Assembly: GCA_965649765.1 (NCBI GenBank)
Contig: OZ287752.1
Location: forward strand, 25,792,001-25,856,000
Length of the DNA: 64,000 bases
Reading direction: 5' to 3'
Source: Bispira polyomma
Lineage: Eukaryota
Both the position numbers and the translations under genes were made by a program. Below, one piece after another: positions 15,501 through 64,000 of this stretch. How positions within the stretch are numbered: position 1 is the stretch's first letter; every line of letters starts with the position of its first letter. A model generated the notes under the pieces. It saw only the letters and a program-made list of their open reading frames with translations, made no database searches and was not told where the DNA came from.

Positions 15501-15674
15501 TATATCAAGAGACAAATGTATGCTTTTCTATATCCCATTCCCTTTATTCTATTTCTTGTAATCCTTTAAGAATAAACTTTTTTATTAGTAATCACATTTG
15601 ACAACCCCCCCAAAAAAAAGTTATCACACCTAAGTTGACATTGTTTCTTGTAATTATTTTCTCTATTCAAACAG

Positions 15675-16478: not shown

Positions 16479-16640
16479 CATAAAATTCATAACATAATGT
16501 AACAATTCATAATAATTATCCACTTTGTATACTTCCTAAACAAGCACCAATAATATTTGCAACATCATTCTTTGACTAGTGTTTAATTCTAAATTCAAGA
16601 GTTTGTGTAATATATTTGGATTCATTTACTATTTATTTAG

Positions 16641-18896
16641 GGTGTTGCAATGTTTGCAACGTGTGGAGGATTGTGATCCATTGCCTCTTAGGATAGCATA
16701 CGATGCCTACCGAGCTTCTTGCGCTACTTTTACAGTCGATGCTTGTTCCAAGGAACTTTTCTCCAAAGCCATCAATATTAAATTTCCAGCATGTAGAGTG
16801 AGGAGATTGTACAATGGCAGTAGCGAGGTCTGCTACAAAAACCTTGCTGCAAGAACTGATTTTATATATCGCATTGCCAGAGAACTATGTCCTTTTGGAA
16901 AAAGATACTCAGTACCTTCTTTTGTTAAAAAACACAGACATTATTGTAAGCAGTACTTACAGATTGCAAGTGAAAGTTAAAATTCAAAATTGTAAATGGG
17001 CTATGTTTGTGGGCGAAAAAGAAATTGATTTAAGTGCTTTGGGATTCTCAAGTAAATTTATTTGGAAGAAGAGTTGTCTATCATGTGTCATTTTTTTAGT
17101 GAATAACATCAGAATTTGCAAAGGGAAAGAACATGGTACAAATTCAAAGTATGTGTTCAATGAAACTACCACTTCCAACAGCAGCATCACCTCAACTTAC
17201 CGGAGCAAATATTGTTTAAAAGTTGTGTCACCTTTCTGTTATGGCAATGTTTGCTCCAACTGCATAAAGTATGTACCGAAGGTTGTTGACACCAAATCTT
17301 TGGAAAGTGTGACAAGTGCGACAGTAGAGTTTGATGATTACGATTCACATGATTTTCAAAGCGTGGCAGATTTTGCCTTGGCAAATGCCTCATCTGAGTT
17401 TCAATCATTTATTAATGGTCAAATTAAAAACATACAATAAACTCCCAAAGGCAGAAGGTGGGACCCATCATTTATTAACTTTTGTTTGGGTATATACATG
17501 AAGTCACCAAGTGTGTATGAGAAATTGCAGAATGGGGGTATGTTTATCTTACCAAGTGGCCACCTTCTTCAATACTATAAAAACAGTGTAAATCAGTCAA
17601 CAGGTTTAAAGGATGATGTGTTACTATGGATGAAGAAAGAGATCACAAGGTTAAAGATTTCGAGTGAGGGTTACTATGGGGGTTTCTTCTTGATGAGATG
17701 TCCATTCAACCTGATATTTCTATCAAAAAGTGTCACTCAACATTTCTATTGATTGGTCAGGCTGATATGGATGACACATCAAACCTAATGAACATAATTA
17801 CCCATGTAAAAAGTGAAATATCTTTATCCAAATATGTACTTCAGTATTTATTTCTGGGTCATACAGGTTTTAGGTTTCCTGTGGCACATTTTCCGTCAAT
17901 GGGAGCAAGTGCACACCAACTTTACAACACATTTTGGGATGAAGTAGACAAGCTATCAGAATATGGCTTTCATGTTGATTACTGTAGCTTGGATGGTGTC
18001 ATTTCAAACAGACAGTTTCGTTCTTTACATTTCACAGACTGTGATATCAGTGAAAAACAATTTGCTTCAGTCAGTTCAATCAACCCATCAAAATCTGTCA
18101 TATTCATACAAGACATCAAGCACAACCTGAAAAAAGTTTGTAATAGCTTAGTTAAAAGTAGTTCAACTTCAAACAATATTAGACATATAAAGCTTGATGG
18201 TAATTCTATTTTATGGTCCACATTTCGTCAATGTTATGAGTGGGACATTGAAAACCATGCTTTTCCCCTGTGCAGAAGTCTTTCTGAAGAACATTTTGAT
18301 TTGAGTAATTCCTCTAAAATGAGAAATAAGTTAGCAGAGGACGTACTGAATGATCAAATGTTAAACTTAATGTTACAATACCAGAAAACTATTAATCAGC
18401 CTGAGACACTTAATGGAGTAATAAAATTGTTGCAACATACTTCAATATTAGTTAAGTTTTCCCATGACTTAAAACCAGTATGTGATATCATTGATGAGAG
18501 ATTAAAAGACTTTGATAAAGTTGCAAAGTTTTTCAGTGAGTGGATAGGGAAAGATCAATTTTTACTCAGTAAAGAATGTCGTCAGGATTTACAGTCATAC
18601 CTCTCTGGTTTCAAAGGATTGTGTATTAAAGTATTTTCTCGTAATCAAGATAACTCATACTTAGTACCAGCCCGTATCAACAGTGATCCCATTGGAAATA
18701 GTTTTTGCCAGTATCGTGGTATAATGGGCTGAATACAAATCCTACATATGCTATGTATGGCCCCTCATCTACAACAGTTACACTGGATCAGAGTGTCGTA
18801 TCTAAAAAAAGAAATGCACATACACCTAGTAGGGGAAAAGAAAATGTAAAACCATTTGCCACATCAACACCAAATTCCTTGAGAAGAACGAACTAG
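16641..18896 (+). pseudogene. P-superfamily (THAP9-like) transposase preceded by an RFX-like winged-helix; several frameshifts/stops
   Basis: YDAYRASC...SKELFSKAINIKFPACRVRRL..GSSEVCYKNL (RFX-like); PKGRRWDP..CLGIYMKSPSVYEKL..LPS; DEMSI; LDGVISN; QDIKHNLKKVCN; KMRNKLA; NSDPIGNSFCQYR (catalytic E replaced by G); NTNPT. Confidence 0.85.
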
Positions 18897-19194
18897 CACA
18901 ATCTACAAAGGAAAGTACAATGGCTAAAGTTTTAAGATTATAATAAACTTAAAAATATGATGATTGCCTATATGGTTTTGAGTATTATTTTTGGTTACAA
19001 AATATCCTACTATATCTATATATTAAATAGAAAATGCAATGATTGCCTGTAAGGTTATAAGCGTGATTTTTATCGAAGAGGCCATTTATTTATGTATTAC
19101 TTTGTCCTTTACAATTGTTGACAATATCACTGCTTACATGGGTTAGCACATTCGTGGTTTTTTTTATTAGAAACTGTTATATATTGCTTGTATT

Positions 19195-19610
19195 TGTGAA
19201 TCCCCTAAGGGTGCCCACCTTAGGGCGTGCATGACATTCGTGAGAAGCATATGGTCTTACCGGGGCTAGTGTTATACTTGCAAGTATAAAGTGTATAAGC
19301 ATTGTTTGTATTGGTGCGAATATATATATATATAGGGACGGACAATATTCCATGTGTGAATCCCCTAAGGGTACCCACCTTAGGGCGTGCGTGAGATTCG
19401 TGAGAGCATATGGTCTTACCGGGGCTAGTGTTATACTTACAAGTATAAAAGTGTATAAGTATTGTTTGTATTGGTGCGAATACATATATATATAGAGACA
19501 GACTATATTCCATGTGTGAATCGCCTAAGGGTGCCCACCTTAGGGTGTGCGAGCAATTCGTGAGAAGCGTATAGTCTTACAGGGGCTAGTATAATACTTG
19601 CAAGTATAAA
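19195..19610. repeat. 160-bp tandem repeat, ~2.6 copies, palindrome-rich
   Basis: gtgaatcccctaagg recurs at ~19196, ~19356 and ~19516. Unit 1 contains the perfect palindrome ttatacttgcaagtataa, and the units carry a ccctaagg/ccttaggg hairpin. Confidence 0.95.
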
Positions 19611-20819
19611 AAGGCGAAGTTAGTGAAATACGTATAGATGGTGGAGCGGGCAGTACCATGTTTTTTCCCCAGCAAATTCTGTGACAATGTTGTATTACTG
19701 TCTGTAATAAATATTAAAATTGTTACATTTGCAGTAATTGACTACTATGGTTATTAGTAATATATTGAAATGTTATGGTATTAAACTTTTAATTAATGGT
19801 ACTATGGGTTGATTTCATTGCTAATGTCAACTTTCAATGTATAGTTAAAGAAAAGCGATGACTGCCTTATGCTTATGAGCAAAATTATTAGTGAGTAATA
19901 ATGTGTTCTGGGTTCCAATCCCAAATGAACTTTGACTGCAGTTTTTCATGGGGAATGTTCAGCAATTCACCTGTGTGTGCATTTGTGGGTCCTATATCTG
20001 TTTAATATTAACTGTCTGCACATATGCTGCTCTTTTATTTCAGCTAGGCATTCTTTCATTTATTTATATACTGGCAGAGAGATATTTTAAAATGTTTTTT
20101 TTTCTATCTTGATATAAATATGTACATTTCCCGCGTGACAGGTCAAAGGGTCAGAGGTCAAGAAAGCAAGATAGTAAGTAAGCAGAATGCGGTAAAATAT
20201 TTTATTGTTAGTCTATGTTAAACTACTATATACAACGTGACTTAAGGTCATGATAATTTGTAACTTTAAGTCATACTAAATTGAGTGAGAGTAATAAAAT
20301 ATTTTACATAACTTCAAAGAACAAGATAAGGTCACCCCAAGACAGTTTAAATAAGTGAAATGACAAAGCCCGTAGGGGACTTATAAATGGAGATGATCTT
20401 ATAATTTAGACTACAAAAAGGGGGGCTAAAGATCACCTTAAATACAGGTTAGTATACTAAATTTTTAACCCATAAGGGAATTACAAAATGAGGTGACCCT
20501 AAAATGTGTAGAAGAAGAGTTAAGTTGTAATTTTTCAGTTAATTACAGATTCTATTACCTTTTAATGAAACAGTTATTTCATGAAGTTGAATTACTAGTT
20601 GTAGCATACAATTACTAGGAAATAAAATACTACTGTGTGAAGTTAACTTTATAGTTGTAACATGAAATGACTAGCAAGTGAAATAATAATTGAAATTCTA
20701 TATGACACTATACATGACTAGCATGTGACTCCATGTAAAGCAAAAATTACATAATTATCTAGACTATGAAATATAGACTAAATTTTGAGTAGAAACACCC
20801 AAACCCAGCACGTAGGGAG

Positions 20820-21833
20820 CTAGGGAGAAGAAGTAGCAAGATGAAGGCGAAATGTGTCCGATACCTGCTGTCCCGCATCCACTGAGTCGGTAACATACCT
20901 CCACACGCAATCCGACGTCCAAGTGCCATGTTTTTGGATGTTCTGAATGCTGACGTTATGGTTAAAGGCAAAAGTGGCACCAGAACGTCGGAAAGCGTGC
21001 AGTGTGAGGCCAGAATCCTGCAACTGGAGCCTGGCAAATATCGTTTTGAAATGCCTGCGGACACGGGTGTCAGTAAGCGGAACCCAGTGAGATTTGTCTT
21101 TGAATTGAAATAAGGGTGAATTAGGTTCAGACGGAGTAAGAGCCATAATTGCCTGCAGTGACCCCACGGGGCAAAGAGGAGAACCCAGCAACCGTGGGAT
21201 AGTAATAAGTCTAATCTGATTATTACTCTGCATAGTTTTGGACCATTTTACCAAAAGGACAGCTTTGTCCCTGTGAAACATGACATCAGCCCTGGATAGA
21301 TGTCTCAAAGCAGAAAACTGAAGACAGGAATGGGGTACTAAATTGGATAACCTGAGGAAGGAAAAGTAGCTGACCAAATACACGGCCGTAAAGATAGGAC
21401 CCATGTAAGTGGTGTTGGAGACATTGACAATACTCGTCAGAAGAGGTATGTCTATAATCTTTTTGAGCTGAACATTTAAGGGGGCAGCCAATTGGACAGA
21501 CTTTTGATAGTAAGCCAAGCGAGGGTCACTGAAGGCAAGAATGGGCACATTGTATACAATACTCTTAGCTTTAATAGCAGTTAAATAATTAGCCATATGG
21601 GCAGGTTTTACAGAGTTAAAGTGTAAGAATTCTAAAAAAGCAAGAAGATCAATAGCTGTCACCTGGTCACAAGGCAGATCCGAGAAGGATGCATAAGCTT
21701 GGTACACCCTATACATCGCAGTATAAGATCTGTCCGTAGACCTGCAGAAGGCCAAGTGAAGCTTCTTCGTTGCATTTTGATATAATAACTGCTGCAGGGG
21801 AGTTGTAGCTATAACACAACACAAAGCAGACAA
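20820..21833 (-). CDS. Tyrosine recombinase (YR) of element 1; probably entered by splicing at 21808
   Basis: FLRLSNLVP (R), VKWSKT (K), LHAFRRSGAT (HxxR), HGTWTSDCVWRY (H/W, Y): the full catalytic set. The ORF begins at a TTG rather than an ATG. Confidence 0.95.
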   Translation of the reverse strand: MSALCCVIATTPLQQLLYQNATKKLHLAFCRSTDRSYTAMYRVYQAYASFSDLPCDQVTAIDLLAFLEFLHFNSVKPAHMANYLTAIKAKSIVYNVPILAFSDPRLAYYQKSVQLAAPLNVQLKKIIDIPLLTSIVNVSNTTYMGPIFTAVYLVSYFSFLRLSNLVPHSCLQFSALRHLSRADVMFHRDKAVLLVKWSKTMQSNNQIRLITIPRLLGSPLCPVGSLQAIMALTPSEPNSPLFQFKDKSHWVPLTDTRVRRHFKTIFARLQLQDSGLTLHAFRRSGATFAFNHNVSIQNIQKHGTWTSDCVWRYVTDSVDAGQQVSDTFRLHLATSSP

Positions 21834-21888
21834 AGTAACATTTGTAAAGGCTGATCAACATAATAGCATGCAAGCAGACAAGCAATAT

Positions 21889-24498
21889 CTAAATGTGGTG
21901 ATTGAGCCGTAAGTGGTCCTCCGTCAAGGCACACCATTGGACATCACCCACCAGCTCCTGTAAGAGAACATTATCCTTACTTGAATTTGTCCAACGAGAT
22001 AAGAGGTCAGCGGTGGTATTGTCATTTCCTAGAATATGAACCACCTGTATGTCTACATCGAGCTGGCTAGCCAGCATGAATATGTTCCGCGAGTACAGGG
22101 CTAATTCGCTATCTCTAGTTCTACCATGCGTAAGGACACTCACAACAGCCTGGTTATCACATTTAATTAACAGTCTACGTCCTTGCCAGTATTTGCCCCA
22201 CAACTTCAACGCCACATGAATGTTCAGCATCTCCAATGGAGCAATATTATGTTTGTGCATAGCAGCAGGAATGGGAAGGTAATATACTTGTTTGCCATAC
22301 ACTCCTCCCATGCCTGTTAGGCAGGCATCCAACTCTACAATGTCAGTGATGGGGGCATGATGAAAAAATGTCACCCCATTGTATTTCTGGAGAAACTGAA
22401 TGAACCAGTTAAGGTCCTTTTTGAAGTCAGGGTTAATTTTGATACTTGTTTTGTGGTGATTGCTTCGGAGGAGCTGCAACATCCGATTCAGAAAAAATCG
22501 TGAGTACTTCACGCATTTAGAAATATACAGCAAAGAACCCAATAAACATTGGAGCTCCCGCTTAGTACACTGCTTTTTATCACTCCAATTGGCACACATT
22601 TTTTGAACCTGAGCTAGTTTGTCCTCTGGTATCGATGTAGTGAACCGAACTGTATCTATAACTATACCTAGGCAGGTTACCCGGGTGGCTGGAGGAACCA
22701 GCTTCTTCTTGCTAAGAGTCAAAACCAACTCGGCCAAAAGGGCCTGCAGTCGGTGGTATGTTTCATAGATTTTTGAGGGAACAGAAGAACATAAGAGATC
22801 GTCGATATAGTTGGTGATTTTATGACCTTCACCTTCCATAATATACCGTATACTGTCAGAAATTCTCTGAAAAATCACTGAACCGTGTCGGTAGCCAAAG
22901 GGCAACGAGCCGTCGAGATAGTAGCCATCCCAGTATAAGCCCAGACGATTGATGTCTCTTGGGTCTATGGTCACGTGACGGAATGCGCGACTAATATCCG
23001 CTTTAAATAGCAAGGAGCCCCTACCGTTTTGCAACACTTGTTTGGTTATGTCATCTATAGAAGGGTAAGTAAGTACAAATTCCTTGTCCAGATACAAATT
23101 TGAGGACACCGCTGCATTAACCGAATGACCGATGGGCCAACTGAGATCTATTATAACTCGTCGGTTAACCGAGCTTGACTTGTCTCTAGTCATAAATGGA
23201 GATGTGTGGACATCATCAATTGGGGGATGGACGAAAGGTCCATACATAGCACCCATAGAACATTCTTCTTTCAGGTAATGGTTCACATGCTCAGGATATT
23301 GATTGGCTGAAGCATGATTGTTCAAGTCAGACTTGAAGTCATGTTCTTCATTACAGTCAAGAGGAAATCCGAATTTTATCAGTAAGGGGAGCTCCCAATC
23401 CCAATAATTCGCTAAATACTTTTCCCAGGCAGGGACCGTCAGTTGGGTGTGTATGGGAACTTGTAAACCCTTATAATTTGGTCTCCCATCCAATTTAAGG
23501 GCCTTATGCAGTGTAAACACATCTGTGATCAATTGGTTATTGGAGCAATCAATCACTGGGGTACCCCAGGAACTAGTTGGTATGAACCCATACTTCCCAC
23601 TATTCTGTATATCCCACAACTTGTAGGTCACATTATCTTTAGCTGCATTTAAGCGCTGTCTCTTATCAAGGCCTCCTGAGAGGTCCAGTACATACTTGTC
23701 ATCACACGGGTTAGATCTCTTGTTAGGTGGTGGAATAGTGCAATCGACCCTACCTAACGTGTCACTCGAGTCAGGAAGTGGAATAGGTGTGAAATCGACC
23801 TTACCGACCGTGTTAATAGATTCAGGAAGTTCTACATCAGGAATGTCTAGGCCACTAAACCGGTTATGCATGGGAAGGTGAAACCCACTATTGTTAGCAT
23901 TACTTGAAGTGGTACCCGCGCCAATTGTATTCACACGCAGAGAACCCCGCCGTTTAGGCCCCCCTTGGGCATCACTTAGTTCAATTGTTTTGGACACAAT
24001 TGGTTGATTTTGTAACACCCGGTTTGCATGGTTACCGACCCGCCTATTCACGGAAGTTTTCACACCACCCAAAGGTGTTTTTCTTAACACCTTTTGGGGA
24101 ATTGTTTTCTCACGTCGCCTGTCAGCTGGTGTATTTAACACTTTCACGGGTGAATGCCTCCCTCCCGACACCTTGTGCAATGAGGTATTATGGAACACAA
24201 GTTTGCTACCTTGTGGGGTTCTATTAACAGAAACAGGGTTAACTTCCCCCATTTCCCGGTTTTCACCAATCTCGATACCAGGAACCACAACGCCCTGTTG
24301 CAACACGTCCTGGTATGACCTGTTCAGTCGGGGTCCAGTATACATATTGTATTTACAACACACATGATCAAACAGTTTAAAATCCCTAAAAGTAGAATTA
24401 TATACAACTCTGGAGCAGGTTTCACGTACAAGTTTCTTAGCAGCCACTGCAATACTGCAGTGGCCCCTTAGTTTTTTGAGACCGATTTTTTGAAGCAC
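21889..24498 (-). CDS. Reverse transcriptase + RNase H (pol) of element 1, in the -1 frame relative to gag
   Basis: RRVIIDLS, KADISRAFR, LPFGYRHG, NYIDD, CLGIVID; RNase H ELDAC, LEMLN, CDNQAVV, ADLLSRW. Confidence 0.95.
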   Translation of the reverse strand: MLQKIGLKKLRGHCSIAVAAKKLVRETCSRVVYNSTFRDFKLFDHVCCKYNMYTGPRLNRSYQDVLQQGVVVPGIEIGENREMGEVNPVSVNRTPQGSKLVFHNTSLHKVSGGRHSPVKVLNTPADRRREKTIPQKVLRKTPLGGVKTSVNRRVGNHANRVLQNQPIVSKTIELSDAQGGPKRRGSLRVNTIGAGTTSSNANNSGFHLPMHNRFSGLDIPDVELPESINTVGKVDFTPIPLPDSSDTLGRVDCTIPPPNKRSNPCDDKYVLDLSGGLDKRQRLNAAKDNVTYKLWDIQNSGKYGFIPTSSWGTPVIDCSNNQLITDVFTLHKALKLDGRPNYKGLQVPIHTQLTVPAWEKYLANYWDWELPLLIKFGFPLDCNEEHDFKSDLNNHASANQYPEHVNHYLKEECSMGAMYGPFVHPPIDDVHTSPFMTRDKSSSVNRRVIIDLSWPIGHSVNAAVSSNLYLDKEFVLTYPSIDDITKQVLQNGRGSLLFKADISRAFRHVTIDPRDINRLGLYWDGYYLDGSLPFGYRHGSVIFQRISDSIRYIMEGEGHKITNYIDDLLCSSVPSKIYETYHRLQALLAELVLTLSKKKLVPPATRVTCLGIVIDTVRFTTSIPEDKLAQVQKMCANWSDKKQCTKRELQCLLGSLLYISKCVKYSRFFLNRMLQLLRSNHHKTSIKINPDFKKDLNWFIQFLQKYNGVTFFHHAPITDIVELDACLTGMGGVYGKQVYYLPIPAAMHKHNIAPLEMLNIHVALKLWGKYWQGRRLLIKCDNQAVVSVLTHGRTRDSELALYSRNIFMLASQLDVDIQVVHILGNDNTTADLLSRWTNSSKDNVLLQELVGDVQWCALTEDHLRLNHHI
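24443..24477 (-). promoter_or_regulatory. -1 programmed ribosomal frameshift signal (A_AAA_AAC + 6-nt spacer + 9-bp hairpin)
   Basis: Minus strand reads tcA AAA AAC taa ggg GCCACTGCA gtat TGCAGTGGC. The -1 frame is the pol ORF. Confidence 0.8.
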
Positions 24499-25463
24499 AA
24501 CTTGGTTTGATGCGGGCCACCACAGCTCTCACAGCAGTGTTTGAACCACTGTCCAGAAGTGCGATGGCTGGCATCAAATTTACACGTGCCTTCCTGAAAA
24601 AATCGACAGTTTACTCCCGCTGTTTTCATCGAGGTTTTACCCCTACTGCCAATATTGCTTCTAGAAAGGCCAGACCCACTAGCTGAGGACGTTACATGAC
24701 GCTGTGCATGAGCGCGCCTTATCCGGTCGACCTTTTCGACATCCGTCCAATTCAGTCGGTCCATTTCCATGTTGGTCAACAAAATGGCGTGAGCGGCTTT
24801 GGCGGCATCCCACGAAAAATCATGGGCGTCATCCATCAGGCATGCCAGATATTCCAACATAGCCTCGCGGACCGAGGAGTCTTTTTGCTCTTGCGTACAG
24901 CGAACAAACCCGGAAATGAACTGAACCAAAGTAAGGTCATCGTAAGTGGGTCTAACCTTTTTTACACCCGACAAGACAAAATTTTGTGGCCAATCAACAT
25001 GACGTTTAACGGGAGCTTCCGCGCCACCTCTTTGGGATTTCAGTTTACCTCCCGTTAAATCGTGGAGTTGTTGCAGTTGCAGCAAACGCTGGTCTACCTG
25101 ACTTTGTAAGCTGGAATTTGAACGCAGGTAATCTAGGGAGGGCACAACGGCCTCAATCACTGGTTCACTAACACTAGGGACATTAGATACAGATTTAGAA
25201 ACTGTATTACATGCCTGCGCGCTGGGTTTACACAGCGCCGCCTCAGTAGCTTGTACTCGTTGATCCATGCTGTCCATCTTCTCGTTCATTACAACCAGTT
25301 GTTGAAGTATCAAACTAGATACGGAATCAGAAACAGCAGGCACAGCAGGATCAACGGCAGCCACCTCATCAGCGACGCTGTCCAACGGATTAAATTTACA
25401 TTTCTTTCCAACTGGACGTCCGTGCCGACCAGAACATACACTACACGGGTATTCCTTAGGCAT
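24468..25463 (-). CDS. Gag-like ORF1 of element 1 (ATG at MPKEYPC)
   Basis: N-terminal CSVCSGRHGRPVGKKC, coiled-coil segments, WPQ..YDDLTLVQF core and a C-terminal CRFFQEGTC...H...HCCESC...H..C Cys/His cluster. Confidence 0.85.
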   Translation of the reverse strand: MPKEYPCSVCSGRHGRPVGKKCKFNPLDSVADEVAAVDPAVPAVSDSVSSLILQQLVVMNEKMDSMDQRVQATEAALCKPSAQACNTVSKSVSNVPSVSEPVIEAVVPSLDYLRSNSSLQSQVDQRLLQLQQLHDLTGGKLKSQRGGAEAPVKRHVDWPQNFVLSGVKKVRPTYDDLTLVQFISGFVRCTQEQKDSSVREAMLEYLACLMDDAHDFSWDAAKAAHAILLTNMEMDRLNWTDVEKVDRIRRAHAQRHVTSSASGSGLSRSNIGSRGKTSMKTAGVNCRFFQEGTCKFDASHRTSGQWFKHCCESCGGPHQTKLCFKKSVSKN

Positions 25464-26869
25464 GACTACACCTTCAACTAAAATATAAACAATATCTGGG
25501 TAGTAAAAGCCCTGGGTAGTAAAAACCCCAATTGTAAAAACACTTGTATCTATGAACTGTTTTTCACTAATGATGGCGCCTGTTGGCGGCAATCCCTTTT
25601 ATACTTGCCCCCGTGACCCCAGGTGGCTTAATTAGCCTCTCAGTGACCTGCCACCAGAACTGAGGGGGGCTGTCGCACGGGCGTCAGCCCACCAAAAATG
25701 GTTACTGTTTACCCAGTACCCAGCTCAGTGGCAAGTCCAGAAAGGTAAGTAAAGGTACCCTCAAGATATAAGACAATTTGAGGGATAAAAAAAAAATTTA
25801 TTTACATGTTAGTAAAAATATTACATTTACTAGTTTTTTAGAGTGACTACTTTTATATACAGTCTGTGGTCATCGTAAACTAACTAAGGTGAGCAGATTA
25901 AGTTTCTACTTCAATACGTTGAAGTTAAGGTCACCATTTGAGCAATCTTAACTAAGGTGACTTTAAGTTAAGGTGAGTTACAGTTTCTAGATTTTACATG
26001 CAATTTAAGTTAAGGTTACTAACTTTACTAAGGTAAACTTAATTAAAGTTAAGCTTACGTAAAACATATACATGCAATAAAAGAGTATAATTACAGAACG
26101 TATAATTGCAGTAAAACAAGATTAATTACAGATGAAAGATAAGATCAGAATGATTTGTTATTCTGATATAAACTGCATTATATATTTACCATACTGATTA
26201 TTTGTGTAAATATACCTTTTTAACCAAATATGATATTTACTGTTAGTGTATAAAACCACCAATTAAAAACAACATATAAGGAAGATGTAAAAGTTTATAC
26301 TAAAATACTAAGAAAATTTAAAATATTGATTTAATTACAGAAAAGACTGCATGCACATGCGGCACAGGAAGATCCCCTAGCTCAGCTGGAACAGTCCTGT
26401 GTGGCCGAACAATACGACCCCTTATGGCCTTAGTTACAGAAATCTCAGCAAACAAACGATTGGGATCAGTGCACTATCAGCCCCTCTGTTGTAAACCTTT
26501 ATTATGAATATCAGCTGGGATGTACCAACACCAACGACCAACGTTCACAGGAGGTGATGAAACCCCACGAAGATGACACACACTTGCACCCCAGCTAGTA
26601 GGATCAGTCATGATTGGTAAGGATGCACCCCAAATCTACTGGGTGATCCGATCGCTGCATGAGCGACGAGAAAGCTGGGCATTACTTGCCAGCAGCCATG
26701 AACACACTAGATTCATCCACACAACATCATACTCAATTGAGCATTTGATTTGATAGACATTACACTCTTTAAGCACAAGCACAATATACGAGCCCCAGGG
26801 GGCGATTTGAGGAACAGAACTTGGGTTGGCAGTATTGTGCTGAAAGCCACATCCCTTTTCATCCTGCAA

Positions 26870-41125: not shown

Positions 41126-41708
41126 CGACGGTTGTATCACATTCTGATGAGTGTATTTAAGAGCTTGAACAGTTAAATTTATCTGCAAGTAATGTGCTGA
41201 GGGCTTTGCCCTCAGCTTCAGTCAAAGCAAGACTCTTTACCCCCTAGTAGTGGGTGGTCTGTATGTGTGCGTTATGGTTATCAGGGCTTCTATTGGGCCT
41301 AATGTGGTAATGTAAATATTGCAAAGTAATATTGGTATACTGGCTAGAATAGTTCAGACATAGAGATCAGAGTCATGTGAGGTTGCATGGCTCCTTGTAT
41401 GGTTGTATTCATGTAGTTCCGGCTAGACAGTCACAAGTCTTGTATGGCTAGCTATATGGTTGAATGTTAGGCTGTCATCAGGTGGTCATCAAAGCATGGT
41501 CAATGCTTCATTGTATTAAAAGTTGGCAGGGGGGAAAGTTGTTTTGACAGAGCTTTCTACTGAAGACCAGGCTGTATATACACTTTCCTTCCCCCAGCTT
41601 TATCATATGATACGCTGAGTTTTACTGTTTTTCGGAGGTGACTTCACCGGTTTTTTTAATGTTTGAGCTTAAGATATTTTGGCATTTGTTAAAAATTAAA
41701 AATGCCAC

Positions 41709-42866
41709 ATGACCAAATGCCACCTGGCTAAGCAAGTTGCACATTGCGACCGATGTAACTTTAAGCACCAGAGACCAGTTAGGGAAGAATGCCCTTTCAC
41801 TGCTGACACAGAAGCTATCTCCAACGCACATGTGTCAGATGATGATTCAGCGTCCTCCCTTCTCCAGCTGGGACAGACAGCACGGGATTCCCCTAGCAAG
41901 GACACTGCCACTACTGAAGAGTGCAGACCTGGGATATCAGCAGCGCCGTCGGAGATGTCAATGATCCTGCACCACTTGCAGCGGCTCGAAAGGCAGATTG
42001 AGGAGGTAAAGAATGACGGGCGTCGTGAGGGTGAGACCATTACACATGCTAACCCAAGCCCCTCAGGGGTCGTCGTTAACCCCCTGGCTCAGAGCGTTTC
42101 ACCCCACAATGTAACACCCCAGAGTAGTGACAACCCCCATGCAGGTGCTGGCATCCACACGGCAGCTGCCAATCGCCCTGTAGCCGCGGCCGGAGTCGAC
42201 CAGGCGATTCTCCCATCCCTGGCCTTTCTGTGCGACAACGCACACCTTCAACGAAGGGTAGATCAACAGCTGCAACTACTGGAGGAAGCAGACAAGCTGG
42301 ACATTTCTGGTAAGAAGATTAAGTCTGGTCTCTATCGTTCAGGGGAGCTCCAGGTGAAATTTGAAGTAAACTGGCTTCATGAGTATGTTTTAAATAGTGA
42401 CAGACAGGCAATTCAGTATGATAATTTAACACCAGTACAATTTAGTCAAGGTTTATTGCAATGTATTTTGGAAGAAGCGGACCCAAAAGTTATGTTGCAA
42501 AATGGGGTACAATTATTCCAAGATTGTCAGGAAACTAATTGGTATACTGCCCGTTCGGCCCACAAAGTTGTTCTCCAACAAGTAGAAAGAGGTAAACTCG
42601 ACGGGAGTAATAAAGGCGATATCAATAACACTAGAGCTCGATTCACGCAGAGAACTATATACCCTAGTAGTACTACAAAAACAGCCACGGCTAAACCTGT
42701 TGGCAACCCCTGTTTGGATTATAACAAAGGCTTTTGCCCCTCTAAATCTGACCACACGGAAAATGGTTCCCTTATGAAACATGGTTGCTCTCATTGTTTT
42801 AAACAAGAAGTGAAGTGTAATAAAAAAGTGGCAATTTGCCAAAAAACTGAGAAAGCCAGTGAATAG
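41709..42866 (+). CDS. Gag-like ORF of element 2 (small C-terminal deletion/frameshift)
   Basis: CDRCNFKHQRPVREEC; LQRRVDQQL; YDNLTPVQF; CLDYNKGFC..H..HGCSHC, all homologous to the element 1 gag. Confidence 0.8.
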   Translation: MTKCHLAKQVAHCDRCNFKHQRPVREECPFTADTEAISNAHVSDDDSASSLLQLGQTARDSPSKDTATTEECRPGISAAPSEMSMILHHLQRLERQIEEVKNDGRREGETITHANPSPSGVVVNPLAQSVSPHNVTPQSSDNPHAGAGIHTAAANRPVAAAGVDQAILPSLAFLCDNAHLQRRVDQQLQLLEEADKLDISGKKIKSGLYRSGELQVKFEVNWLHEYVLNSDRQAIQYDNLTPVQFSQGLLQCILEEADPKVMLQNGVQLFQDCQETNWYTARSAHKVVLQQVERGKLDGSNKGDINNTRARFTQRTIYPSSTTKTATAKPVGNPCLDYNKGFCPSKSDHTENGSLMKHGCSHCFKQEVKCNKKVAICQKTEKASE

Positions 42867-45320
42867 TTCAAGTAGTGAGACTGTATCTAGAGTAGTATGG
42901 AATTCGAGTTATAATCACTGTGACCAACAGAAACGGACTCCTATAAAATCTTATGTTGTAGATACTAATGTACAAGTTATATATCATGTTAGTGGTTTGT
43001 CCAGTAGCAAAATTCATAAACATGATTGTGCTACAAATGGCGCGTTTAGTGTGAAAAACAGTGCATGTAATTCTTTTTCAGCAACAGGCAGCAATACTGG
43101 TGAGTCGTATACACAAAGCCCTGGTAATATTGTCCATTGCTCTCGTGTTAACCTAGACATAGACAACTTGAATCAGAGGACCCAAAATGGAAGTGATGAA
43201 GCACATGACTATGATCATGGCAATATTTTGGCAGATTTAAATGATCCCCTTGTTAAACTAATTAAAACTGCTGCAGACGGCATGAACAGTACTGCTGCTT
43301 GGGGGGGGGGGGGGGGGAAGGGGGCTGACCCTAAATATGGGTTATACAGCACGTGTGTGCAGTGGCATTAGAAATGTTAGTTCTAAAAAATATGATCCTA
43401 ATAAGATGCCTGGTGGAAATCAGTGTGCTGATATTTCTGAAAACTCTGATATAGTGGCTATATATTCTGCTGTCGAGAATAAAAACATTTTTTCAGTTAC
43501 TCAAGGAACAATATGGTGACAGAGTGTTAAGAAACCCATCATTATGCAAGAGTATAATGGTAAAGCATTTGCTGGATCACTGACACAGGAGTTCGGCTTT
43601 ATTAATACTTGTAGTACTGATTATTATCTGGCTGGTACTTATACAGTACTTGAAAGCTCTAGTTTCAATGACTGGGTTATTCAGGCTCATAACATAGTAA
43701 AAGCCAGTGGTTGTCATAATTATCAGAAGGCGAGAGTTAAAGTCCCTTCCAGCTACAACTTCCCTGTGCTTTATAATTTGCTCAAGAACTACAAAGACCC
43801 AAAATTATTTGAATACTTGTTATTCGAGTTCCCCTTGTGTGTAGATTATAATAGTTTCACTTATAATGAAGCTGCTTGTAACCACGCATCTTCACTCAAA
43901 TATCCAGATGACATTCAGATATATATAGACACAGAAATCGCTCACAAAGCTTTAGCAGGACCGTTTTGTAAATAAAAACCCTCTTACCACTTCATGTTTC
44001 CCCCCTTCTTTCCTGACCTAAACCGGGGTCCAGTAGGAGGGTTATAGTCAATTTGTCGCATCCGTACGGCTCATCCGTAAACAGTAATGTGTTGGACGGC
44101 ATATATGACGACCATGAATTTGAACTCAGTTATCCGAACGTTGATGATATTGTGGCTGAAATAGTGTGTATTGGGCCGGAAGCTAAGTTGTTCAAGCTGG
44201 ACATCAGTCGCGCTTTTTGAAACGTAAAGATAGATCCAAGAAACTATGATGTCACTGCCCTTTATTGGGATGACGCTTATTATCTAGACGCCAGTACCGT
44301 GTTCAGCTATAAACACGGATCTGTTCAGATGCAAAGACTAGTCGACCTAATCAGGGACGTTTTAGGTCAGCAGGGCTACGCCATTAAAGGATACGTCAAC
44401 GACGTGATTGGAATAGCGTCACCCAGTACTGCTGACGCAGGGTTTGCTTCCCTAGTCAATTTGATTGATGCTATGGACCTTCCTATTAATTTAAAAAAGC
44501 TTGAACCTCCCAGGGAAACTGTCACGTGTATGGGCATTGTGGTTAAGGCCAGGGAGGGTAAGATCGAAATCTTAACTGAAAAATTAGAAGAGGTAAAAAG
44601 ATGTTGTGCCTCATGGATTGGTCGAACACAGGTGAGTCAACGTGACCTCCCATCTCTTTTGGGTCGCCTTCTTTATATACATAAAGGTGTTGTCTCTGCA
44701 CGTCTTTTCGTTAATAGAATGCTTAGTACCCTTAGGGGCTCCCATAACAGCCGTCTTATTGAGCTTGACAGTGAATTCCATAAGGATATCTGGTGGTTTC
44801 ACACCTTCTTGGAGCACTTTAACGGGGTGGTATTAATACACAAAATGGTAACCCCTGATGTTCAGGTCAAGGTTGATGCTAGCCTTACTGGGGTAGGTGC
44901 CATATGGGAAAACAATGTATATGCAGCCACGGTCCCACTCGAATTAATACAACAATGTACTATTGTTCATCTAGAAATGGCAAACATCTTGGTTACGCTT
45001 AATGTTTGGGGCCATTTATGGCGAGGTAAATATGTCGAAATTCTGTGTGATAATTGGGCAGTGGTCCAGGTCATGTCATATGGCTGTACTAGAGTCAAAA
45101 TATTGATGTCATATGCACGCACTATCTGGTGGATTTTGGCCTGTAATGATATTAAGTTGAAAGTGGTCCATATTATAGGAGTGGATAATGGGGAAGCAGA
45201 TTGCCTCTCGCGTTGGTTTAGTGGGGGTACTAGTAGAATACTTGTGAAGTAATTGTCAAAAGCTCACTGGTGGATGGTCACAAAAGATCACTTCTTACCA
45301 GATTGTTCTATTTAATTCTA
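42859..45320 (+). pseudogene. RT/RNase H of element 2, fragmented
   Basis: NYQKARVKVPS, RRVIVNLS, KLDISRAF*, GYVNDVIG (YIDD mutated), VDASLTG, LEMAN, CDN, ADCLSRW. A poly-G run lies at ~43300-43317. Confidence 0.9.
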
Positions 45321-45333
45321 TTTTTAACCCTAG

Positions 45334-46112
45334 GTCCTTCCATGGCAAACAGACTGCTTAGGCAAGCTGAGTTGAAAATCCCTCTGGCCCATAAACCCCG
45401 CACCAGGGTAGCTTATGCTTCACAATTTAAAACTTATTTGGCTCTAGCTTTATTTTGGGATATACAGGATTTTACTACTCTTTCCGTTGTGTTGATTTTT
45501 ATTGAATTTCTTGCAACTTCGGGGTTGTCCCACCCTAGTATTCAAAATTATATATCTAGTGTTAAGCACTATTTCATATTCTTTGGATTACCTCCGACTG
45601 TTTTCACTCACCTTAAAGTGAAAATGTTCCTCAAATCTATTGCTATTAATTCTCCCTTTATACCCAGAATAAAAGGAGTCATTACTATTAGTATGCTAGA
45701 ACAGTTAATACTTAAATGTGCACCTATTCGAGATGTAATTGTTTATAAGGCATTGTTCTTGGTTTCCTTTTTTGGTCAAAGACCATACAAAGATATGATC
45801 AATTCCAAATTGTTCAATTGCCTCGGTTACTAAATAGGGCAATTTGCCCTACCAAGGCCCTTAAAGACATGTTTAATGCCTGCCCTTCACTTCCATCTCA
45901 CCCCGTGTTTCTGTTACGTTTAAAGTTGGGGCTGCGTCCCCTGTTGGCCTCTAAGGCGCGTCAAGTGTTGGCTGCTTTATGGCTTTCGTTGGGCTACCAG
46001 CTTCCTTCGTATCCATGGTAATTGGAAGAGTGATGCTATATTTGCAAATTTAGAGCAAAACAATTCGGCTAACAAAGTTGCCACTAGTTTCCAACAAATC
46101 CTTTTAAATTAA
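45334..46112 (+). pseudogene. YR of element 2 with two internal deletions removing the catalytic R and HxxR segments
   Basis: AHKPRTRVAY..FIEFL..NYISSVK..FLVSFFG jumps to WSKTIQ..LPRL..ICP, then jumps to HGNWKSDAI. Confidence 0.85.
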
Positions 46113-46468
46113 ATTCAAATTACCTCAAAATTTACAATCATACCCCTACTTTTGGGTTTGGGGCTTCTCCTCCATATCTTTATTTTAGTGTAACTGTAGA
46201 GTGTAAGATTATTGTTATGTAGTTGAAGTATAAAGATATGCCCAAAATTGTTAATAAATATTAATAGATAAACTTACTCTCTTTATCATGTGTAAGTCAC
46301 TAATGGCTTTTAGTGCAACTCTCCTGTGTTACCCAGTTATTACTGAAACTTAAAATACATCACTTTTAGGTGATCTTAAACTCGACAGGATGTCGACAAG
46401 GTAATCTTTTGTTCTTTATTGGACTGCTAATGACAAGTAATGATATTGTTGTATTTATGGTTTTATAG

Positions 46469-58539: not shown

Positions 58540-58830
58540 TCACCAGATACTTTTTTACTTACACTGGCATTCACAATACCGACCAGTTCATCATAATGTC
58601 TGACTAGTTATGTCATTACTACATGTCAAAATGCATTGACAAAAACATATTTAATTAATGGTTTTCAATCAGGGGCTTTCTGTCGGGAAGTGGAATATCA
58701 TGATATCACCTCCGGCTTGATACTGGTTCTTAATTGCAGTGTTATGACAATAAGTTAACAATTCGGCTTAATAATTCATGTATACTTTATTTAGTTATGC
58801 AGTTTCCTACTTATTTTAGTTATCATTTCA
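58540..58830 (+). pseudogene. Paralogous copy of the 3' half of Ig-gene exon 4 and flanking intron (48310-48600)
   Basis: QILFYLHWHSQYRPVHHNV* vs QTLVYLQWHLQYRPYHHNVQ. The downstream tatcacctc..gata..gg.tctta..tgcagtg..atgac..taagttaac..aattcatg..tatttagttatgcagtt is shared. Confidence 0.85.
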
Positions 58831-59045
58831 GTCTACAAGCCAAAATCTAAAGAGCAGAAGCTCTGTTCTGCTAATGCCTAATCAGGTTCTGTCATGAAGT
58901 TTAGATCATAAAATAATGACAACAAGATGAATAACACATTGGTGCATTTTTATTAATACATCATTACATATTAATAACAATCACTAAGATGGTTAAAACT
59001 ACCAGGTTAGTCTGTTAGCTATATACAACAAGTTCCCAAACCCAA

Positions 59046-60056
59046 TTACGTTGTAGTGATATGTTTTTTGAAAATGCAGGCAACTGAGGCCGCCGCTTCG
59101 GGTGTAGTTTCTAGATAGTGCCAAATTGCCTGACTCTTCCACCCCCCATGGGCCTGAATACTCTGCAACTGCAAATTTTTATTAAACACAAAAGAAGCGC
59201 CCGAACGCCTAAAGGCATGAAACCCATAATTTGTATATTTAATCTGCAATTTATTCAATATAACAGCCAGACCTTTTCTAACTTTGTATGCAGTAAGAGG
59301 TACCAGTGTTTTGCCTTTTGGTATTACAAACAAGGGAGAATTACCTGTGATTTGAAAAACATTTATCAGTTTTTTGATTGCATGAACAGGACACAAGGCT
59401 GAGTGTTCTAATTTAGGAATTTGCACTATCTGCACTTTGTTTGAACCCTGCATGGCTTTTTGCCATTTGACCACCAAGTGAGCCCCTGGAGCTGCAAATA
59501 TGACATCATTTACAGTAAAGTGTCTAGTCATGTCAAACGAATACATTGAGTTTGGAACCATATTGGACAATCTGAAAAATTCATAATATGCTACCAAAAA
59601 GATAGCTCTATACACCACTTCATTGTTAAGATCCCTGCAAGCCAATGATATGCTCTCAATGTCCTGTATACTAAAAACTCCTTTGATTTTAGGTGCATAA
59701 GGTGAATTGATAGCCACCGACTTAATAAATAACCCAATTTTCCTGTGAGCAAAGTGTGTGGTTGACAACCCATATAAACAGAAGAAATGCTTGATAGCCG
59801 AGACATAATTCTGCAACCCCTGTGCTGCATTACCCTGTAGCACCAAATACTCTAAGAACATTAGCAAGGCATGGAGGGATTTATAGGACACACGAAAATA
59901 TATTGTAAAAGCAAGAAACAAATTAAATTTGCCTTTATAAGCACTGGTTGTACGTGGTCTTAAGGCACAATCTATTCTTGCATCTGCCCCTCGCAGTAGC
60001 TGATTGCCCATCTTAGTACCTACAATTTTAAATAGTAAAATCTGGCAAAAATGCAC
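59046..60056 (-). CDS. Tyrosine recombinase of element 3 (probably entered by splicing at 60019)
   Basis: FFRLSNMVP, VKWQK, LCPV, FHAFRRSGAS, HGGWKSQAIWHY. Confidence 0.92.
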   Translation of the reverse strand: MHFCQILLFKIVGTKMGNQLLRGADARIDCALRPRTTSAYKGKFNLFLAFTIYFRVSYKSLHALLMFLEYLVLQGNAAQGLQNYVSAIKHFFCLYGLSTTHFAHRKIGLFIKSVAINSPYAPKIKGVFSIQDIESISLACRDLNNEVVYRAIFLVAYYEFFRLSNMVPNSMYSFDMTRHFTVNDVIFAAPGAHLVVKWQKAMQGSNKVQIVQIPKLEHSALCPVHAIKKLINVFQITGNSPLFVIPKGKTLVPLTAYKVRKGLAVILNKLQIKYTNYGFHAFRRSGASFVFNKNLQLQSIQAHGGWKSQAIWHYLETTPEAAASVACIFKKHITTT

Positions 60057-62782
60057 TATGCTCTACAGGCCACCATGTGCACTGTTGCAACTCCTCAATT
60101 ACTTCTTTATGAACTAATTTTCCAGAAAACCACCTAGAAAGGGCATCTGCATGACTATTTTCTTGACCATAAATATGCCTGTATTCTAGAGTTATGTCAT
60201 ACTTCGCAGTCAGACCCCAGATGGTCCTAGCACAAGCCATAAGAATATCATTCCACATACGACCCGAATTAAGCGCATGTACCACTGCCATGTTGTCACA
60301 CCATATGCATACCTTCTTGTTGACCCACAGCTTAGCCCAAATTCTCAAAGCTACCAATACATTTAGTATCTCAAAATGGACTATAGTAAGTCCCCCAGAT
60401 GCTTCCGGTAGGTAAGCAGCTGCATATACATTGTTTTGCCATTTAACTCCAATACCTGTCAGAGAAGCATCGACATATACTTCCAGCTGTGGCTTTGCTG
60501 CATTTATGACCACCTTGCCATTGTAATCTTGTATAAAACTATTGAACCACCTGAGGTCCCTAAAGAAGGACTGTGTCAATTGAATTCTGCCAGGGCCCTT
60601 AATTCCCCTCAACAATTGCAACATTCGGTTTACAAACAACCTGGCCGGATGTATACATTTATGAAGATAAAGCAACCTGCCCAATAGACTTTGTAATTCC
60701 CTTTTTGACGCCCTAGTTTTGATTTTCCAATCATGACAGACCTGTATAATTTCCTGTAGTTTATCACTTGGAATGGAAATAATACCTGTAACCACGTCAA
60801 CATGAATACCCATGCACACAAGCTGTGTGGAGGGAGGGTCCAACTTATCCGGGTTAATAGGAAGACCCAGGTAGGTGAACAATTCCTGCAATTTTTTGTA
60901 AGCTTTCTGTGCGTCTTGTGACGTCACAATACCGATTACGTCATCGATATAGTTCATTACACAAAACCCTGTGACGTCATAGCGTCATGCAATACGTCCA
61001 TTACGCGCTGGCATAAGGCACTTCCGGTTTTTAACCCGAACGCAATGCTTAAATCAACATAGGTTTTATCTTGATGCTTTATGCCCATGATATCATAGTC
61101 ACCCGGGTCTAATCGCAAATTTCTGAATGCCCTACTTATGTCAGTTTTGAAGAGATGCGCCTGAGGACCTAGTTCTGCAATTTTTTCTACAATGTTATCA
61201 ATTGTTGGATATTTTAAACTGAAATGTTGGCCATCATACATATCATCACTAATAGCCGAGTTAACCGAATTTCCATGTGGCCAATTTAAAACAATAATAA
61301 TGCGTCTGGATGCATTTGGCTTAGGTCATGAAAGCATGGGAGAGTAATGTAGCAACTCGAAAATATTAGGATCACAAGGACCCACTATGGCTTTATGCTT
61401 TAACTCCTTGTTCAAGTAAACATTAACATCATCCGGGAACTGATCCGCAGAGAAGTGATTTTTTGAGTCCCTATTGTGGACAAAAGTACTCCTGTCTATT
61501 CCCAAAGGAAATCCAAATTCCAGATAATTAATTAATGCTACATCCTCATGGTTACTTAGCAATGTTTTCCAATTATCTATGCAGAGATCAGATGGGACAG
61601 GAATGCGCTCCTGCATGTAATTAGGTTTACCACTACCCTTGACCATGCCATGGACCTTGGCCACCCAGTCATGCATCAAGTTGGCTGAGACTGTTTGTGT
61701 TATTCTCGAGTTAACTTGCCTATAGATAGGGACAGAAATAAATCCGACACTTCTATTAGAACATTTCATTATATTTGAGTTACAATTGTTATGTTCACGG
61801 TCATTTTGCAGACCTATAACAGTTTGAGTTGTGGGAACTCCAATGGAATCAGCACTCACGGATCCCTGTATAACCTGCTTTAGTGGCAGTTTGGCACTGC
61901 TGTTACTGATATCATTGCCTTGCTTTGGCAAAGCTCTATCCTTGTAACCAGTATCTTGAATTGTAAAATTTTTACAACATATATTCTCATCCTGACAGTT
62001 ATGATTTTCAGTACATTGTAGAACGAGTACATTATGACTATCTGGTTGTCCTTCCTGCCTAAAATCACTAAGATTGTCACTCTCGTTAAGCATTTCATGC
62101 TGTGACTGACTACTAATTACATAGCCACCAACTGTGTTATTTTGATTACATACACTTAAATGTTGTTTGTGGTTAAAATCTTTTTGTTCACTAAAAGATT
62201 CTGAGAATTTAACTGCCTGTCATTACACAGGGCTGTGTGTGAAGGCAGCTTTGTGACAGAAATAGCTGATTCTGATTTGCAATACGAATCCCTCATATGG
62301 TGAACATGATTTTTATGACACCTCACTGGGTGATTTTTACAATGTATTTTAAGGGACGAACTCCCGCTGTACTGAAGATCTACTGCCACCAAGCTGTCAC
62401 CATTCCTCCCTAGATTAATATTTTCTAGCACTGAACAAGTATCAGCTGAAATGCAGTCATGCTTCAACACACACGTGGTGCGTACTTTGGCCTCAAAACA
62501 CTCTTTCTCTCCAATACTGGAATAATACTCATCGTCACATACAGACACCCCTGCACGTGGTTTACACATGTTAAAACATTGAACATTATTAACACTATCA
62601 CACAAATGTACAGATACAGGTTCACTCCAAGGGGTGTGATGAGTGCCCAGCACTCGAGTTCCCTTAGACACACGTTTAGAAACATTAAAATTAGTTTTTC
62701 TACTACTAAAATTGTCTTTGTTATACTTGTTCATATAATTTACGCACGTGGACTTGGAAGATCTTTTTTCTCCCCGTTTTTT
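60028..62782 (-). pseudogene. RT/RNase H of element 3 in several pieces
   Basis: PNYMQERIPVPS, FGFPLG, KTDISRAFR, AFGLKTGS, MNYIDD, VDASLTG, FEILN, CDN, ADALSRW. Confidence 0.92.
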
Positions 62783-63733
62783 GACATTCTATTACATTCA
62801 CATTGTTTGTGGGGCAGAAACCTTTTTGTTGTATTAAAACAATACAAACAAGCATGTTTCATTATTTTTCCCCCTCTGCGTGATCTACATGAGAGCTGCA
62901 AGTGTTGTTATTAAACTTCAAACAAATGACTTCCTTTTTCCCTTGCCCCGCAGAATATTTACCCCACTGCTGATTTCCGTTGCTTTGCAACGTGCGTTGC
63001 GTATTTCGCATGCGAATTCGATCAATTGTCTCAAAATTTAGCCAAGTACACTTGCCACGCTCCATGGTTTGGAGAACTATACTATGAGCTCGTTTAACCG
63101 TACCCCAGTTGGTCTCCATGGCATCCTGCATTAGCAGTTTTAAATACTCTAGCATATTGTCCTTGACCTTTTTACTGGTTTCTTCCTGTACACAACCAAT
63201 GGACCCAAACATAAATTGGAAGGGGGTAAGCTCTTCGTACTTGGGATTTCTCCCACTCATACCAGTATAACAAAACTCATGGGGCCAAGCCACGTGGGCC
63301 TTATTCTTTTGCTCATTAACACGTAATAAACCTGATTTAGAGTCCCGTTCACAACCATGTAAGTTCTTGATCTGTAACTGTACTTGCTTCTGGATCTCCT
63401 CGTTGTTCTTCAGAAACTGTGGATCTGGCATGACACTGTCATTCTCTTCATCTGATAAATTCTCGTAAATAGTAGCCACCTTTCTGGTAGACACGTGGAA
63501 CCTTTTGGAGCAATTTTTTGTAAAATCAAAGTCAATGGATCAGCCCCTGTGGTCGCAGACGTGGCCATCTGTAGATTGGGTCCCCCAGTAGCACCTTCAG
63601 TTTCTGTGACTTCTCCTTCTACTTCTTCCCGCTCAGTTGTCTCGTTTCTCCTGCAATTCCTCCCCACAGGACGCACATGTAGTGGTTCTTTCCCCAACTT
63701 CTCACACGCTGTACAGTGAAATGTACTCGTACT
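62740..63733 (-). pseudogene. Gag-like ORF of element 3 (two frameshifts)
   Basis: CTACEKLGKEPLHVRPVGRNC; FLKNNEEIQKQV; WPHEF..YEELTPFQF; CLKFNNNTC..H; ends ..MSKNG. Confidence 0.8.
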
Positions 63734-64000
63734 GGAAAATAAGAGAAGTCCTCTCTCTCGCAACAAAACCTGGCTTGTCAAATTGAATATCAGTTGCACA
63801 AGGCAGTAGCAAACTTAGAATCTTCCTCTGAATTTAGCCTGATATTCTACAATAACAGAGCTTTTTCCAAGCCCGACAAGCCGCGCTTGTTGCAGAAAAA
63901 GAACTGTTTCCTCAGCTATTGCTACCTTCACACTGACTAGTATTTGCAAAGCAAAGCCCCACCCCAACATTTTGACCCAGTATTCACCCATGTGCTAGAG

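Follow-up and report, generated by a model that had tools for sequence, protein, structure and literature searches.

The window, that is, the whole 64,000-nt stretch of Bispira polyomma DNA that was analysed, contains three tyrosine-recombinase (YR) retrotransposons of the DIRS order, referred to here as E1, E2 and E3, together with other decayed mobile DNA and minisatellites (Table 1). The three elements are of the Ngaro type; the class was assigned by architecture as described for Ngaro (PMC8547959, PMC3783388, PMC6681497, 10.1101/2021.08.05.455354, in the portions available). Results of Pfam searches with E1 and its relatives gave the ORF order gag, RT/RNase H and YR, all co-oriented, which is the Ngaro layout. 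The YR match stays under the gathering cut-off (E 4e-5 to 5e-3), and the H-x-x-R motif is present. Split direct repeats (A1...B1-A2...B2) were found within the 9-kb cuts in 25 of 63 families from the same genome, including relatives of E1, E2 and E3. No Dam or other methyltransferase (MT) domain was matched in Pfam, pol stopping about 30 aa past RNase H, and no DDE integrase was found in these elements. The aspartic protease motif, which the earlier note had failed to see between gag and RT, is absent from 36 intact representatives, as expected of YR elements (PMC3783388, in part). The elements thus share with the Ngaro superfamily, as far as these sources describe it, the order and orientation of the ORFs, the A1-ORFs-B1-A2-B2 arrangement in relatives and the lack of MT, protease and DDE integrase. 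Membership of the DIRS1-like group was rejected, since there are direct split repeats instead of inverted terminal repeats (ITRs) at the element ends and no MT domain. A 15-bp inverted match (19600/25594) was discarded as an ITR, because it lies partly outside E1.

E1 lacks the A2 and B2 repeats, both of which occur in the relatives L002, L006 and L007. Seven of the ten compared relatives (L003, L004, L008-L011, L014) terminate, as E1 does, at the B1 end without A2-B2; such ends may stem from recombination at a B/A junction, of which a circular intermediate would hold two. Fold-back (inverted) rearranged copies of the E1 family (L214, L215, L001) were noticed on contig C10, and an inverted pair of about 1 kb (35719-36663 / 39996-41116, 72-79% identity) lies just upstream of E2. 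Identity over RT/RNase H is 41% between E1 and E2, 37% between E1 and E3 and 45% between E2 and E3.

The family is large: more than 15,000 first-look candidates for this RT were counted in the 1.04-Gb genome, and a profile search with gag reached 2,244 clusters of gag with E values of at most 1e-10. Seven RT searches of the genome supplied our sample of 200 loci, each 9 kb long; it is not random, as loci were hand-picked for long open frames and diversity. Own-genome copies (n=203) were clustered at 80% RT identity, with the 34 that have no readable zinc knuckle left out.

Table 1. Positions of the features discussed, numbered from the first letter of the window.
Feature	Position	Strand	Remarks
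Minisatellites	894-1452, 19192-19611, 53136-54716		
LINE-type reverse transcriptase fragment	12502-13437	-	
Decayed DNA-transposon-like region	14495-18732	+	weak ORF matches to PHD finger and to P-element-type transposase RNase H
E1, young Ngaro-type copy, A1-gag-pol-YR-B1	20124..25697	-	ends from alignment with 10 relatives, 92-98% identity
A1 repeat	25532..25694	-	contains TATAAAA 25603-25597
gag, 331 aa from ATG	24468..25463	-	C-terminal CCCH + CCHC-type fingers; no Pfam match
Predicted phase-1 splice donor, mid-gag	25043..25051	-	first intron base 25048
Zinc knuckle H-x-C-x2-C-x3-H-x4-C	24495..24539	-	sets gag frame
Slippery heptamer A_AAA_AAC	24471..24477	-	gag register (TCA AAA AAC TAA)
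Spacer, 6 nt	24465..24470	-	holds gag stop TAA; 6 nt in 13/13 aligned clade sequences
Stem-loop, predicted frameshift stimulator	24443..24464	-	9 bp (24464-24456/24451-24443), 4-nt loop
pol ORF, -1 frame	21889..24528	-	879 codons stop to stop; open through RT/RNase H
RVVYNS motif in pol	24411-24394	-	upstream of first AUG (44 codons past site)
RT in pol	about 23070-22660	-	
RNase H in pol	about 22338-21991	-	
Predicted splice acceptor before YR, phase 1	21809..21830	-	pyrimidine tract, AG 21810-21809
Tyrosine recombinase coding part	20820..21808	-	no AUG near start; YR ORF 21854-20820
B1 repeat	20124..20801	-	
E2, decayed copy	41193..46426	+	predicted donor 42310 and acceptor ending 45333 still present
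E2 heptamer	42841..42847	+	out of gag register in this copy; no hairpin
E3, decayed copy running off window	58829..64000	-	predicted acceptor ends 60020; donor gone in small deletion
E3 heptamer	62776..62782	-	in register with knuckle; no hairpin at canonical spacing

The -1 site and its stem-loop

The earlier note had proposed that a slippery heptamer, AAAAAAC, joins gag to pol in all three elements. Its three positions were confirmed (Table 1), and E1 has the classic layout described there: an in-register heptamer, a 6-nt spacer with the gag stop and a 9-bp hairpin, which folds at -22.5 kcal/mol (z -4.56; none of 200 shuffles equally good). The gag register claimed for all three holds in E1 and in E3, where the break in gag lies upstream of the knuckle. 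In E2 it does not: a knuckle deletion and a frame-breaking lesion immediately precede the heptamer, a stop follows it, and the register is visible only in the sister copies L048 and L060 (about 92-96% identical). The -1 frame is pol, open to RT/RNase H, in E1; in E2 and E3 it is a pol N-terminal fragment interrupted before RT. Shuffle folding gave no downstream hairpin in E2 (z +0.40) or E3 (z -0.91), so that the complete cassette is confined to E1 among the three. Within the E1 family, 25 of 30 copies keep heptamer, spacer and stem exactly, and of the remaining five, three break off or turn round at the site or ahead of it.

Junctions of the sampled copies were aligned, as the earlier note had called for genome-wide, and the heptamer proved to be conserved in register in 29 of the 35 -1-side families (A_AAA_AAC in 28, G_GAA_AAC in one; 99 of 122 copies), 3-11 codons past the zinc knuckle. 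Elsewhere in gag, in-frame A_AAA_AAC occurs at 2 per 10,095 codon triples, and at two of 45 other Lys-Asn dipeptides, which puts the pattern well outside chance. Throughout the 28 families AAA is the sole codon for Lys at this site and AAC for Asn, and the codon before them invariably ends in A: TCA, GCA, ACA, CCA, ATA or TTA (S, A, T, P, I, L); it is CCG in the G_GAA_AAC family. The background product for this codon choice is 0.066 per family; such chance figures are overstated, since the families share ancestry and were scored positive from a single copy with the motif. Codons for the knuckle Cys and His residues vary in the same families, with TGT at one Cys kept in 25 of 29, and this comparison indicates that inheritance and codon bias account for part, not all, of the constancy of the heptamer. 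Among the copies sampled, a clean motif is missing in six families on the -1 side and two on the +1 side (see below). In one of the six the site reads A_AAA_ACC, one has lost an A and one has A_AAA_AAT or A_AAA_AAA; in two more an intact heptamer is immediately preceded by a stop, and the last has nothing at the site.

A stop occurs within 20 codons of the site in the -1 frame of only 2 of 29 families, as against 25 of 29 for the +1 frame, and 14 of 18 families have a conserved R-x-x-Y-N-S-like pol motif ahead of the first AUG. In 91 copies pol is open all the way from the end of gag to RT; of these, 60 have it in the -1 frame (53 with the heptamer), 23 in the +1 frame (21 with GTT-/CTT-stop) and eight in the gag frame (seven with TGA). 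Results of a search in a global protein library showed K-N just past the knuckle in 64 of 112 gag representatives (38 of the 150 have no terminal knuckle and fall outside this count), where about 3% is expected from the gag body, whereas the gag tail is Lys-rich.

Several single copies depart from this pattern. A gag stop stands directly before an intact heptamer in several families (L015, L021, L023, L025, L036, L069, L184), leaving the shift site unreachable. In L005, L020, L027, L043, L090, L091, L096 and L126 a junction indel merges gag and pol into one frame. The single-copy locus L098, in the E3 clade, has pol in the -1 frame, A_AAA_ACC in place of the heptamer and a gag that ends in GTT-TAG, which is possibly a coincidence or an intermediate.

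The stem does not extend to all of these families. Ranked against windows of the same element, it falls within the top 5% in 13 of 14 E1-clade families and in none of 15 of the E2/E3 group, so that the cassette of slippery site plus stem put forward in the earlier note stands for the former only. The covariation test proposed there was also run. For 13 aligned E1-clade sequences, 94% of cells are paired, and eight cells carry double changes, a number matched by none of 500 shuffles; C-G, G-C and U-A exchanges occur at the stem base. Yet double changes fall in only two of the nine pairs, and this measure is not above shuffles (321/500). Five core pairs are invariant, and the same bases encode a conserved H-C-x-x-A-V in the pol frame. 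Four families have different stem sequences at similar spacing. In E2/E3-type families, searches for a hairpin and, by a crude heuristic, for a pseudoknot, a longer fold or a 5′ structure placed 0, 0, 1 and 3 of 15 in the top 10%, and those for pseudoknots, longer folds and 5′ structures were negative in the +1 and UGA classes as well. We infer that E2/E3-type families would use some stimulator yet to be found, or none.

The register, the invariant synonymous sites and the open -1 frame strongly support the earlier proposal that Gag-Pol is made by -1 programmed ribosomal frameshifting (PRF). From these sequence features, -1 PRF is very likely the mode of the E1 clade, and it is likely, at a somewhat lower confidence, in the stem-less group of E2/E3 type.

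Two further types of gag-pol junction

The earlier note overlooked that the -1 site is one of three junction types in the family and that YR probably comes from a spliced RNA. A +1 clade, monophyletic at 100/99, is sister to the E2/E3 group at 98/94. GTT plus a stop closes gag in 17 of its 19 families and 42 of its 47 copies (CTT in one further copy); the two families without it are single decayed copies. All three stop codons are used, followed by U in 14 of 17 families and by C in two. GTT makes up 28% of other Val codons, compared to 17 of 17 at the gag end of this clade, and Val-stop ends in representatives of -1 families are GTG or GTC (5/5), never GTT. In 17 of 17 families the +1 pol frame is open from the TTT overlap onwards, with frame 0 closed in 13, and of 17 intact copies, 14 have an S-x-F-W pol motif ahead of their first AUG. 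Two codons upstream of the site C-A-G is preferred, and a C-rich patch lies 12-22 nt past the stop (0.44 vs. at most 0.26). In other organisms, Gag proteins belonging to this clade have V, I or L as the last residue, which would be compatible with NUU codons. We consider it probable that the sister clade uses +1 slippage in the P site, going from GUU to UUU while the stop codon occupies the A site. A site of this kind is described in closteroviruses, where GUU before the ORF1 stop (GUU_stop_C) is invariant and a GUU to UUU P-site slip was proposed (PMC3542737, in part). Common to both are, on that description, the invariant GUU, any of the stop codons and a next ORF in +1 without an AUG; the present site differs in belonging to an animal retrotransposon, in the C after the stop not being kept (mostly U, 14/17) and in the C-A-G two codons upstream.

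The third type was found in metagenome relatives. Of 12 loci, eight have a visible junction: in all eight, gag, a single TGA and pol lie in one frame. They come from three assemblies (five of the eight from one), and gag of L163 is internally deleted. At the third base past the stop, 7 of 7 have T. That these hosts read UGA as sense was rejected, as each pol has 8-15 TGG codons and no internal TGA. Readthrough of UGA in these other lineages appears fairly likely. In known readthrough systems, such as gammaretrovirus UAG and type II UGA (PMC3542737, PMC5009743, in the portions available), there is likewise a single in-frame stop between gag and pol; the UGA relatives differ from them in having no CGG or CUA context and no detectable stem. 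Among 40 further loci of this genome, picked with UGA-type queries, none had a UGA-type junction; the candidate L197 was dismissed, being in frame only through an indel and retaining the heptamer. No relatives were found in viral contigs, nor in a first metagenome scan. Between UGA and RT, the pol N-terminal region of L166 and L169 has several Cys-rich finger-like motifs. The UGA relatives lie mostly near the base of the tree, with one inside, and at least three mode changes are needed; no ancestral mode was assigned, because the root rests on long branches.

A predicted intron upstream of YR

An early AUG is often missing from the YR ORF, whose frame relative to pol is not constant. As that frame differs within families, readthrough from pol into YR was rejected. 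At 263-270 codons upstream of the catalytic His, 33 of 34 families have a candidate acceptor (YAG and a pyrimidine tract) in phase 1; in the other two phases acceptors are found in one and seven families. A matching donor was located in mid-gag, where 45 of 46 families encode a homologous Gly by GGT, vs. 39% of other gag Gly codons. This GGT is followed by A in one alignment column in 36 of the 46, and in nine of the remaining ten the donor is at a Gly before K-x-K-S that the aligner had misplaced. Donor scores on a splice-site matrix are moderate. The donor is common to all three junction classes. In E1 the predicted intron (25048-21809, 3.24 kb) begins upstream of the recoding site, and its removal would give a GagN-YR protein of 467 aa. 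The 30 best gag matches of the E1 family include no spliced retro-copy, with 40 of about 290 candidates scored in each search. Three runs of unknown kind on E1 contained no joint at the predicted intron, which bears neither way on expression or splicing. The conserved signals argue strongly for YR being made from a spliced RNA that joins the first half of gag to YR.

Expression scheme and alternative explanations

The explanation that we favour, with high confidence, is that the unspliced RNA gives Gag and a minority of Gag-Pol by -1 slippage, and that YR comes from a spliced RNA. Translation of the unspliced RNA would yield mostly Gag; at A_AAA_AAC, tRNA-Lys and tRNA-Asn would slip in tandem, assisted by the stem in E1-type families. 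The E1 junction would read S-K-N and then L-R-G-H, in a fusion of about 1,190 aa. At the homologous position, the sister clade would use the +1 slip from GUU to UUU and other lineages UGA readthrough. Splicing of the E1 intron would remove the shift site and all of pol, leaving GagN-YR. According to the parts of PMC3542737 and PMC5009743 available, canonical -1 PRF has X_XXY_YYZ and a stem 5-9 nt downstream, A_AAA_AAC is among the shiftiest heptamers for mammalian ribosomes, and each of the three recoding mechanisms is known from viruses and LTR elements. The heptamer pattern, the stem spacing of the E1 clade and the expected Gag to Gag-Pol ratio are shared with -1 PRF of retroviruses, astroviruses and LTR elements in those accounts; the present sites differ in that no protease follows, and half of the -1 families have no detectable stimulator.

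Conservation at the junction could also reflect the protein, if the K-N and Q-R-V ends of Gag were kept for their function and pol started at its own AUG (by a subgenomic RNA, leaky scanning or reinitiation). The V, I or L ends of gags near the +1 clade in other organisms would fit a hydrophobic C-terminal motif, and in a few families an AUG falls within or close to the overlap. However, protein constraint cannot fix synonymous positions, and the Val-stop ends of -1 representatives are never the GTT of the +1 clade. In frameshift families the first AUG is not reached until 11-288 codons downstream, at positions unrelated to one another, and conserved pol motifs precede it, which makes this reading very unlikely. 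Slightly less credible again is translation of pol from a spliced mRNA, with the GTT of the +1 clade as donor or the pyrimidine patch past the stop as acceptor. Conserved splice signals do exist in the elements, nine of 17 +1 families have an acceptor-like site at +30 to +59 nt past the stop, and the C-rich window at +12 to +22 would suit an acceptor. But GTT fits the donor consensus just as a random GT does (3.9 vs. 3.8 of 9), the AGs about 24 nt past the stop are in phase 2 whereas the conserved donor is in phase 1, and neither a conserved donor near the gag end nor a conserved acceptor at -1 junctions was found. The +1 frame, moreover, is open from the UUU codon itself.

The A6 run might instead be lengthened by RNA polymerase slippage, as in potyviruses, with no ribosomal frameshift. 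Changes of A-run length are seen in the genomic copies L043, L090 and L091, and the lack of a stimulator in E2/E3-type families would agree with this. Polymerase slippage needs neither the fixed register nor the terminal C, though; one family has G_GAA_AAC, with four A only, and the stem sits at ribosomal spacing. We regard it as the least probable of the three.

Ribosomal recoding for Pol and splicing for YR thus remain our preferred scheme. More broadly, we lean, by a little, towards regarding the gag-pol junction as a recoding switch that changed at least three times among -1 (with or without stem), +1 and UGA modes at 37-49% RT identity, with one conserved intron supplying the recombinase. 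In the literature searched, from whose coverage the founding Ngaro descriptions and supplements fall out, no gag-pol recoding in DIRS-order elements was found, nor was an account of how YR retrotransposons express ORF2 and ORF3. The available portions of PMC6681497, PMC8547959, PMC3783388, PMC3266345, PMC2632668, PMC7192593 and the Xenopus preprint mention no such signal; as far as available, the Ngaro literature gives the ORF layout and overlaps, and the gag-pol recoding signal and the spliced YR are features predicted for the present elements.

The analysis offers a full scheme that can be tested, with recoding for Pol and splicing for YR. About 50 natural, alignable cassettes of three types at one homologous position could be used to test whether recoding modes are interchangeable, and the GUU-stop sites would give an independent test of the closterovirus +1 mechanism, called unresolved by a 2012 review in the portion available. 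If the scheme is true, a GUU-stop +1 site is decoded by animal ribosomes, and structure-free A_AAA_AAC sites would point to a stimulator still to be found. Any annotation of this large family in which pol or YR begins at the first AUG is probably mistaken.
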